NCBI RefSeq assembly: GCF_030384885.1
Contig: NZ_CP128613.1
DNA from: Escherichia coli
GTDB taxonomy: Bacteria > Pseudomonadota > Gammaproteobacteria > Enterobacterales > Enterobacteriaceae
Strand: one strand, 5' to 3'
DNA: 64,000 nt
Part shown: positions 35,257 through 35,676 of the stretch, in pieces
Numbering within the stretch: position 1 is the first letter of the stretch
How the letters are laid out: each line of letters begins with the position of its first letter
The notes under the pieces: generated by a model
The model's input: only the letters and a program-made list of their open reading frames with translations
Told to the model about the DNA's origin: nothing
Database searches by the model: none
Translations under genes and position numbers: made by a program

Positions 35257-35332
35257 TGGAGCGGGAAACGAGACTCGAACTCGCGACCCCGACCTTGGCA
35301 AGGTCGTGCTCTACCAACTGAGCTATTCCCGC
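35257..35332 (-). tRNA. glyY: tRNA-Gly(GCC), third copy
   Basis: 76-nt sequence, reverse complement reads GCGGGAATAGCTCAGTTGGTAGAGCACGACCTTGCCAAGGTCGGGGTCGCGAGTTCGAGTCTCGTTTCCCGCTCCA. Confidence 0.95.
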
Positions 35333-35367
35333 TTGGGTGGTCTGTGCTTTGCAGCACTTTCAAATTT

Positions 35368-35443
35368 TGGAGCGGGAAACGAGACTCGAACTCGCGACCC
35401 CGACCTTGGCAAGGTCGTGCTCTACCAACTGAGCTATTCCCGC
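35368..35443 (-). tRNA. glyX: tRNA-Gly(GCC), second copy
   Basis: Identical 76-nt tRNA sequence. Confidence 0.95.
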
Positions 35444-35600
35444 TTAATCTTCGTCTTTCGAACCGCTACTGCCTTGGCTGCCTTCACTCACCTTAGTCAC
35501 TTACTTTTGTAAGCTCCCAAGGATTCGTTTAGTTGCCGCCTTGTCGCAATTCGAAATACTGCGATTGGGTGGTCTGTGCTTTGCAGCACTTTTCAAATTT

Positions 35601-35676
35601 TGGAGCGGGAAACGAGACTCGAACTCGCGACCCCGACCTTGGCAAGGTCGTGCTCTACCAACTGAGCTATTCCCGC
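35601..35676 (-). tRNA. glyV: tRNA-Gly(GCC), first copy
   Basis: Identical 76-nt tRNA sequence; GCC anticodon inferred from the recognised tRNA-Gly sequence. Confidence 0.95.

Follow-up and report, generated by a model that had tools for sequence, protein, structure and literature searches.

The stretch of Escherichia coli DNA analysed here (contig NZ_CP128613.1 of RefSeq assembly GCF_030384885.1; its full 64,000 nt are referred to as the window) holds exactly three tRNA genes according to ARAGORN, all of them tRNA-Gly(GCC) genes on the minus strand with gcc at position 34. In the order of transcription these are glyV, the first gene of the operon (35601..35676, read from 35676 to 35601), glyX (35368..35443) and glyY (35257..35332). 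The three 76-nt sequences are identical, with the CCA end encoded in the DNA, and each is also called by the Rfam tRNA model (RF00005; 69.1 bits, E 4e-14, gathering score 29), so that an earlier note on this DNA, which had read three identical tRNA-Gly(GCC) genes from the letters, is borne out. The RefSeq annotation of the neighbourhood lists tsaE, nnr, queG, a 17-aa open reading frame, the three tRNA-Gly genes, orn, rsgA, asd and mscM. glyV, glyX and glyY are identical in sequence to the K-12 genes and lie within the same orn-queG synteny; the locus is the E. coli glyV-glyX-glyY operon (tRNA-Gly3, anticodon GCC), located between orn and datA/queG. In the E. coli collection, strain 2013C-4282 shows 100% identity to the window over the locus region. 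The annotated neighbours agree with the earlier statement that no integrase or island abuts the cluster. The absence of a mobile element holds for what abuts the cluster but not for its inside, where an ERIC-family MITE (miniature inverted-repeat transposable element) sits in the first spacer. This element, the minus-strand gene order and datA, the DnaA-inactivating locus of replication control that follows directly downstream, had been overlooked. The account given here, a glyVXY operon with an ancient and structurally constrained ERIC that was lost in K-12, is considered likely as a whole.

Alignment to K-12 shows that the window locus equals the K-12 locus plus a clean 121-nt insertion adjoining glyX (35444..35564, minus strand, in tRNA-sense orientation), which expands the glyV-glyX spacer from 36 nt in K-12 to 157 nt in the window. 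Its placement is ambiguous by 2 nt (up to 35446-35566), and it ends 1 nt before the 5' end of glyX. The RefSeq annotation does not contain this ERIC, and no Rfam family matched the insert in a search of the locus. The sequence belongs to a dispersed family: 5,026 of the 5,426 complete E. coli genomes contain matches, at a median of 8 places each, and most matches are ~75% identical to the 121-nt insert. The ERIC2 PCR primer, whose sequence was confirmed from the literature, matches the centre of the insert (35485-35506) with 3 mismatches, where 0 such matches are expected by chance, and the insert agrees with a 44-nt core built from the ERIC1R and ERIC2 primers at 34 of 40 aligned positions, as compared with 26-39 for other family copies. 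The ERIC copy between puuC and puuR of K-12 is not matched by ERIC2 within 3 mismatches and matches the primer-derived 44-nt core at 34 of 42 positions. The differences from the core are compensatory, in that the consensus CCCCAG/CUGGGG has become CCUUGG/CUAAGG in the window copy. The terminal inverted arms comprise 24 nt with 71% complementarity in an element of 119-123 nt, and the sense RNA is predicted to form one long imperfect hairpin (-42.8 kcal/mol, z-score -5.7; longest uninterrupted helix 11 bp), whereas the antisense RNA reaches only -25 kcal/mol (z-score -1.7). ERIC/IRU MITEs are defined by these properties in reviews (PMC3184786; PMC10969869), and the insert is identified as such an element because of its dispersed family, the ERIC2 and core match, the terminal inverted repeats and the strand-dependent hairpin. 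It thus shares with ERIC/IRU MITEs (~127 bp) the size, the primer-targeted core and the imperfect palindrome with terminal inverted repeats, as well as the dispersed copies, the intergenic place and the orientation-dependent RNA folding, but differs from them in its place within a tRNA operon, where it abuts a tRNA 5' end, and in belonging to a cross-genus clade of its own. A small open reading frame within the ERIC (18 codons, GTG...TAA, ending exactly at the ERIC end) was rejected as a coding candidate, as it is interrupted by stops in 7 of 17 orthologues; its variable columns are distributed 10/9/11 over the codon positions. The family was reportedly treated by Sharples and Lloyd in 1990, by Hulton et al. 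in 1991 and by Wilson and Sharp in 2006, the last of whom are said to have covered 14 non-K-12 ERIC loci.

Homologous copies occupy the same place in other genera. For this comparison one genome was taken per species and a tandem tRNA-Gly array with a 20-50-nt spacer was required, giving at least 120 loci (designated below by L numbers where needed). Nearly all of these arrays adjoin orn and/or queG, which marks the locus as orthologous. A profile search returned at least 19 gly-linked ERIC copies in at least 17 loci, including the window and its genome record (L001). All 19 copies listed have the same orientation relative to the tRNA, and 18 of them end 1 nt before a tRNA-Gly 5' end (...GAAGAUUA-A, then GCGGG), the tRNA of L027 being cut by the end of the locus. 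The genera concerned are Escherichia, Citrobacter (two species), Silvania, Superficieibacter, Kluyvera, Pluralibacter, Klebsiella (two species), Buttiauxella and Enterobacter, together with four Pantoea/Erwiniaceae-like genomes; gly-linked homologues are thus found in the same syntenic locus of at least 12 genera besides Escherichia, and internally deleted remnants in Trabulsiella and two Pantoea genomes. Within the array the ERIC may occupy spacer 1, spacer 2 or the position upstream of the first gene, as unit shuffling within the array would produce, while the flanking tRNA-Gly genes are 100% identical across the ERIC-bearing genera.

Some of these loci have peculiarities of their own. In the gly-linked ERIC of Klebsiella spallanzanii (L121:978-1109), an internal stretch of 9 nt is duplicated in tandem (AAGTGACTA) close to the apical loop. 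The record of 'Enterobacter ludwigii' EnVs2 (L108) contains seven tRNA-Gly genes and three ERIC copies, two of which lie in identical 197-nt spacers. Both this record and that of 'Enterobacter cancerogenus' M004 (L099) group with Pantoea/Erwiniaceae by Orn/QueG identity (~83-88%) and by their ERIC, and are probably misnamed.

In a neighbour-joining tree of 26 ERIC copies, the gly-linked ones form one clade with a roughly taxonomic order, and ERICs from elsewhere in the same genomes fall outside it. The gly-linked copy of Citrobacter youngae is 91% identical to the window copy, as opposed to 62-68% to the two other ERICs of C. youngae. Between E. coli and the other genera, 4-fold degenerate sites of orn/queG are 44-55% identical and hence near saturation (the Pantoea-like L099 and L114 rows, with orn alignments out of frame, were excluded from this comparison), while the ERIC is 78-91% identical across the same genera, at or above the coding DNA overall (78-85%). 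Perfect 76-bp homology on both sides of the element in every genus could also have let the ERIC-bearing spacer travel as a cassette, by homologous recombination between flanking tRNA genes, and such horizontal spread would account for the different array slots and for the interleaved E. coli alleles described below. However, the divergence of the ERIC grows with taxonomic distance, the Escherichia/Citrobacter, Klebsiella and Erwiniaceae-like copies each cluster together, and the small-hairpin part beside the ERIC is genus-specific in 6 of 7 genera. Since this non-ERIC part of the spacer is of the host genus's own type in those 6 of 7, a recent transfer of whole spacers between genera is argued against, and spread of this kind appears improbable as an explanation of the distribution. 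Within E. coli, tRNA-mediated recombination probably does shuffle ERIC+ and ERIC- alleles.

Within E. coli, the ERIC is present at this site in about 1,605-1,636 of 5,426 complete genomes (~30%). When the locus was searched with its two unique flanks joined and 59 genomes were sampled down the ranking, only two locus sizes were encountered, 750 (37 genomes) and 871 (22 genomes), and comparing copy number across strains, as the earlier note had recommended, gave three tRNA-Gly genes in all 59. The sole common polymorphism at the locus is therefore the presence or absence of the ERIC, gene copy number being constant. On a tree of 1.8 kb of flanking sequence, to which ten further E. coli loci were added, ERIC+ and ERIC- alleles are interleaved. 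Both are found in the K-12 haplotype group (flanks 99.1-99.8% identical), where K-12 and JNE131328 are ERIC- and YD786, M10 and TUM9757 are ERIC+. In JNE131328 (L132) both spacers are of the 35-nt glyX-glyY type, the first, with any ERIC that it held, having been replaced by a copy of the second. Unequal exchange between repeated genes would be expected to have this outcome, and the locus attests directly to the exchange of units in the array.

Both of the most divergent lineages in the Escherichia sample carry the ERIC, namely the window strain (95.5-96.6% identity to the others) and the outgroup-like SCPM-O-B-8794 (93%), and because of this parsimony suggests that the ERIC+ state is ancestral in Escherichia and that the element was lost from ~70% of E. 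coli, including K-12. The pattern of presence and absence fits loss of the ERIC better than gain, and the empty state seen in K-12 would have been derived repeatedly, or in a single event that recombination then spread. The opposite polarity, with a K-12-like empty spacer as the ancestral state and the ERIC as a recent, selfish and neutral insertion in this E. coli lineage, has very little to be said for it: it would have to explain why at least 12 other genera have homologues at this very junction of the syntenic locus, all in one clade, why both divergent Escherichia lineages are ERIC+, and why identity to the Citrobacter copy is 91% where 4-fold sites are 50% identical. What speaks for it is the presence/absence polymorphism within E. 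coli, the exact correspondence of the empty allele to the filled allele minus the element, and the nature of ERICs as MITEs (PMC3184786). The allele of the window at 34700-36300 is itself unusual, being matched at 99% identity or more in only 8-16 of the 5,426 E. coli genomes. Typical E. coli flanks are 97-99.8% identical to one another vs 95.5-96.6% for the window strain (95.8% to K-12), and the window strain, which matches 2013C-4282 exactly, may represent a divergent E. coli lineage.

The gly-linked copies also share a predicted RNA structure. RNAalifold finds 34 base pairs in the ERIC, for which 96.9% of the sequence-by-pair cells are standard pairs and in 14 of 34 pairs both partners have changed; the observed values are not attained in any of 500 column shuffles, and pairing falls to 22-41% in controls with slid partners. 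Several conserved pairs are G-U and can form in the tRNA-sense RNA only. These pairs, and the difference in folding energy between the strands (-42.8 vs -25 kcal/mol), point to the tRNA-sense RNA as the constrained strand. When the whole 501-nt precursor is folded in silico, the ERIC and the two small spacer hairpins are retained as modules. Taken with the synteny, the comparison indicates that the ERIC is old, orthologous across genera and kept as an RNA hairpin on the transcribed strand, and that the retained copies appear to be under purifying selection which preserves this hairpin.

The remainder of the glyV-glyX spacer (35565..35600, minus strand) is identical to the whole 36-nt spacer of K-12 and consists of an AU-rich stretch after the CCA (AAAUUUGAAAA), a hairpin (35576-35589) and a C/A-rich tail (ACCACCCAA). 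The glyX-glyY spacer of 35 nt (35333..35367, minus strand; hairpin 35344-35357) has the same three-part architecture, and 35333-35367 and 35566-35600 are 90% identical without gaps, with one extra base as their only difference. Both contain gtgct-ttgc-agcac (GUGCU-GCAA-AGCAC in RNA sense), which folds with -7.2 kcal/mol, a stability matched in 6 of 200 shuffles. The near-identity of the two segments and their common hairpin had been pointed out before and are reproduced by the alignment, but the segment 35566-35600 had been placed immediately upstream of glyX. It in fact represents the first 35 nt after glyV, 121 nt away from glyX, and is the 3' trailer of glyV because the genes lie on the minus strand. 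In K-12 the glyX-glyY hairpin reads GUGCU-GUAA-GGCAC, with the GNRA loop kept and U-A changed to U-G.

Spacers of Enterobacteriaceae follow the plan AAAUUUGA..., hairpin, ...CACCACCCAA, and 47 of 57 unique spacers of at least 33 nt fold with -4 kcal/mol or better, vs 27.5% of interior shuffles. Among them, 17 different 5'-stem strings occur with complementary 3' strings, e.g. GUGCU/AGCAC, GUAUC/GAUAC, GUGUC/GACAC, UGGCU/AGCCA and GGCC/GGCC, often with GNRA loops. These stems were judged by folding each sequence and by shuffles, and the MAFFT alignment left the 5' stem halves out of register. Since the stems covary across genera in 17 variants, there is good evidence that the small hairpin is under selection, which strengthens the earlier view of a preserved signal as far as conservation is concerned. 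The hairpin is not indispensable, because spacers of 23-25 nt in Klebsiella, Raoultella, Pluralibacter gergoviae and Superficieibacter do without it. It may act as a processing signal; RNase E in vitro needs the single-stranded glyX-glyY spacer and the upstream tRNA of the K-12 precursor, and no role of the hairpin was shown (PMC4191395; PMC9841416). A function as an intrinsic terminator was rejected, as neither hairpin is followed by a U tract (ACAGACCACCC is found there instead) and a terminator scan calls nothing. An Rfam match to YrlA, a Y RNA-like family (RF02553; 35280-35418, minus strand), which runs from the end of glyX through the spacer into the start of glyY, was likewise discarded: with 40.3 bits it stays below the gathering score of 69 and most likely reflects tRNA-like sequence.

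Among 51 three-gene arrays of other species, spacers are 91% identical within a genome vs 57% between genomes (medians). The tandem duplication proposed in the earlier note is thereby supported and can be extended to ongoing homogenisation, the array appearing to undergo concerted evolution rather than to preserve a mere old duplication. Such concerted evolution would keep the three genes identical and the spacers near-identical. Identical genes, near-identical 35/36-nt modules, a hairpin that covaries across genera and the lack of an integrase nearby would agree with an operon that is simply triplicated in tandem, with one hairpin-bearing processing signal present twice as its spacers and no mobile DNA involved. 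Yet the ERIC, which makes up 121 nt of the 157-nt glyV-glyX spacer, has no explanation in this view, which also misplaces the repeat relative to glyX and makes the hairpin a requirement that the 23-25-nt spacers of Klebsiella, Raoultella and others do not meet. It is highly improbable as a reading of the locus, and as a complete account it is ruled out by the alignment to K-12.

Arrays elsewhere in the sample differ in gene content. In Photorhabdus (L018, L041, L076) the middle tRNA gene is a variant with a compensatory G-C to A-U change in the anticodon stem, and in Entomohabitans (L098) it has a change in the T-arm, so that the genes of the triplet are not always homogenised. Aeromonas (L008, L074) has six or seven tandem tRNA-Gly(GCC) genes adjoining orn, with a degenerate tRNA-Gly remnant in a long spacer (L008:932-1045, where ARAGORN does not call it, and spacer 4 of L074). 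In Pantoea sp. Ap-967 (L067:6684-7207), ARAGORN finds tRNA-Glu(UUC) interleaved with tRNA-Gly(GCC) in the orthologous array. Spacer 2 of two Erwinia loci (L052, L103; 303-328 nt) contains a terminator-like hairpin with a U tract and an apparent second promoter, and the third tRNA-Gly gene may be transcribed separately in these loci.

Upstream of glyV, a promoter and 5' leader were read from the sequence by eye (35677..35761, minus strand), with a -35 element TTGCAG (35756-35761), a 16-nt spacer, a perfect -10 element TATAAT (35734-35739) and a GC-rich discriminator. A consensus promoter scan of 34950-35950 made no call, the -35 element matching at 3 of 6 positions only. The glyVXY precursor 5' end of Kime et al. 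(primer CCGTAACGACGCAGAAATG; PMC3985628) maps to 35726 here, which anchors the promoter and leaves a leader of ~50 nt (35677-35726) with a hairpin of its own (-9.3 kcal/mol, z-score -3.0). Promoter and leader are the same as in K-12 save for one substitution in the leader, and for K-12 a single promoter and a polycistronic precursor have been demonstrated (PMC10950094; PMC3985628). At the other end, the operon terminator or attenuator (35198..35234, minus strand) comprises a hairpin (35207-35234) followed by UUUUUGUUG, with a fold of -14.3 kcal/mol, and overlaps the DnaA-box-like ATATCCACA (35230-35238). The agreement with K-12 extends to this overlap, since TglyV-X-Y covers DnaA box 1 of datA there (PMC10950094). 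Four matches to TTATCCACA with at most 1 mismatch lie within 250 bp directly downstream of glyY (34989..35238), at 34989-34997, 35001-35009, 35163-35171 (perfect TTATCCACA) and 35230-35238, a cluster whose place agrees with that of datA in K-12 (PMC10950094). A separate terminator-like hairpin is located at 35045-35067 on the minus strand. In K-12, the operon has its own promoter, the transcript is only partly stopped at the attenuator over DnaA box 1, and read-through from the tRNA promoter displaces IHF from datA (PMC10950094). K-12 glyVXY and the window thus have in common the 76-nt genes, orn upstream, datA/yjeV/queG downstream, the promoter region, the leader and the 36-/35-nt modules; they differ in the 121-nt ERIC between glyV and glyX of the window and in the glyX-glyY hairpin, which has GCAA and U-A in the window vs GUAA and U-G in K-12.

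The K-12 precursor is cleaved by RNase E through direct entry, and the major cut, 1 nt after glyY, depends on the single-stranded glyX-glyY spacer and on upstream glyX, not on glyV (PMC3985628; PMC4191395; PMC9841416). In Yersinia transcripts, an ERIC unmasks an RNase E site in its 3' terminal inverted repeat (PMC10969869). For the window, the operon would be transcribed on the minus strand from the promoter downstream of orn, toward the attenuator and datA. Each spacer would present an AU-rich single-stranded stretch 3' of the CCA as a putative RNase E entry or cleavage site, a small hairpin that is usually GNRA-capped, and a C/A-rich single-stranded 5' leader of the next tRNA that RNase P would remove. 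AAAUUUG and AGAUUAA resemble the sequence preference of RNase E. The ERIC would be co-transcribed in sense orientation up to 1 nt before the glyX 5' end, would form an autonomous imperfect hairpin of 34 base pairs within the precursor, and would be excised through RNase E cuts close to the AU-rich motifs at either end of the spacer, together with an RNase P cut at the 5' end of glyX, so that the fragment would be released via the normal RNase E, RNase P and exonuclease pathway. A passive reason for the constraint may then suffice: a large insert in a tRNA precursor would have to fold on itself in order to spare the folding and processing of its neighbours, whereas clean loss of the whole element would be tolerated and partial disruption would not. 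A passenger that needs to stay self-contained most likely accounts for the combination of strong constraint with frequent clean loss.

The ERIC may also have a function beyond that of a self-folding passenger, having been co-opted as a determinant of processing or stability (yield of glyV vs glyX-glyY), as a released, stable and structured RNA of ~150 nt, similar to other RNAs that derive from tRNA spacers, or as a modulator of read-through into datA. Its conservation at or above that of the flanking coding DNA, the extensive compensatory change and the invariant junction with the tRNA 5' end would agree with this, as would the control of IHF binding at datA by read-through from this promoter (PMC10950094) and an Hfq co-immunoprecipitation signal on the operon in K-12 (PMC10710024). 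On the other hand, the element has been lost repeatedly without obvious cost, K-12 manages both its tRNA-Gly3 supply and the control of datA in its absence, and in vitro the major RNase E cut after glyY takes place without a contribution from glyV (PMC9841416), so that co-option, though the main alternative, is judged rather unlikely. The specific proposal that the gly-linked ERIC was exapted, i.e. fixed before the split of Enterobacteriaceae and Erwiniaceae and since retained in the glyVXY precursor as an RNA module with a function, is regarded as doubtful; if exapted, it might tune processing, yield a stable spacer-derived RNA or set the read-through into datA.

Several points weigh against the picture of an ancient, self-folding ERIC that was lost in K-12. 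The neighbour-joining tree is built on ~120 columns and is without support values, and ERIC identity follows the identity of the flanking coding sequence only moderately (Spearman 0.62, p 0.08). The at least 120 loci were selected for one short spacer, and the frequencies across genera are not estimates. The right flank is TA in almost all gly-linked copies. On the left, TA is found in Klebsiella, Pluralibacter and Superficieibacter, as opposed to CA in E. coli and Citrobacter, where the ERIC target duplication would be expected to give TA; the unoccupied site of E. coli has CCCAA. Since most genera and 70% of E. coli lack the ERIC, it is dispensable. Co-transcription and the cleavage sites in an ERIC+ strain are predictions, as is the selective reason proposed for the constraint, and the strong conservation of the sequence beyond pairing may hint at more than passive self-folding.

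Other repeats and spacers in transcripts offer partial parallels. Co-transcribed ERICs of Yersinia alter transcript stability via RNase E, as the work of De Gregorio et al. (2005) is summarized elsewhere (PMC3184786; PMC10969869). The likeness lies in a hairpin that would be co-transcribed in the window too and in the 3' terminal repeat, which in the window copy contains the AU-rich AGAUUAA, a motif that resembles an RNase E site, while the host transcript is an mRNA there and a tRNA precursor with predicted cleavage here. The spacer RNAs 3'ETS-leuZ and metZWV provide an analogy in that the fragment would leave a polycistronic tRNA precursor by RNase E and RNase P. For the ERIC of the window they are a lead only, a stable fragment and its pairing as a small RNA being hypothetical. 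The Correia elements of Neisseria are also MITEs with long hairpins in transcripts and endonuclease processing (by RNase III there), but belong to an unrelated sequence family, and many interruptions break up the hairpin of the ERIC. All of the ingredients are known, namely the operon, datA, ERIC elements and the action of ERICs within transcripts; a full-text literature search for ERIC together with glyV returned no paper linking the two, although the locus might be contained in the main ERIC survey.

The finding implies that K-12, in which all work on glyVXY processing and datA read-through was done, would be a derived, ERIC-less form, and that ~30% of E. coli and many other genera would carry an extra 121-nt structured RNA in the precursor, provided that the element is co-transcribed as predicted. 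The gly-linked ERIC appears to be a clear case in which a MITE has kept a single orthologous position across genera, under strong constraint and with many compensatory changes, and it is relevant to the long-standing debate on ERICs as junk or as constrained RNA structures. If the ERIC were to set the read-through into datA, ERIC+ and ERIC- E. coli would differ in the coupling of tRNA transcription to the control of replication initiation. The natural ERIC+/ERIC- pairs of the K-12 haplotype group, with flanks that are 99.4-99.8% identical, constitute a ready-made experiment.

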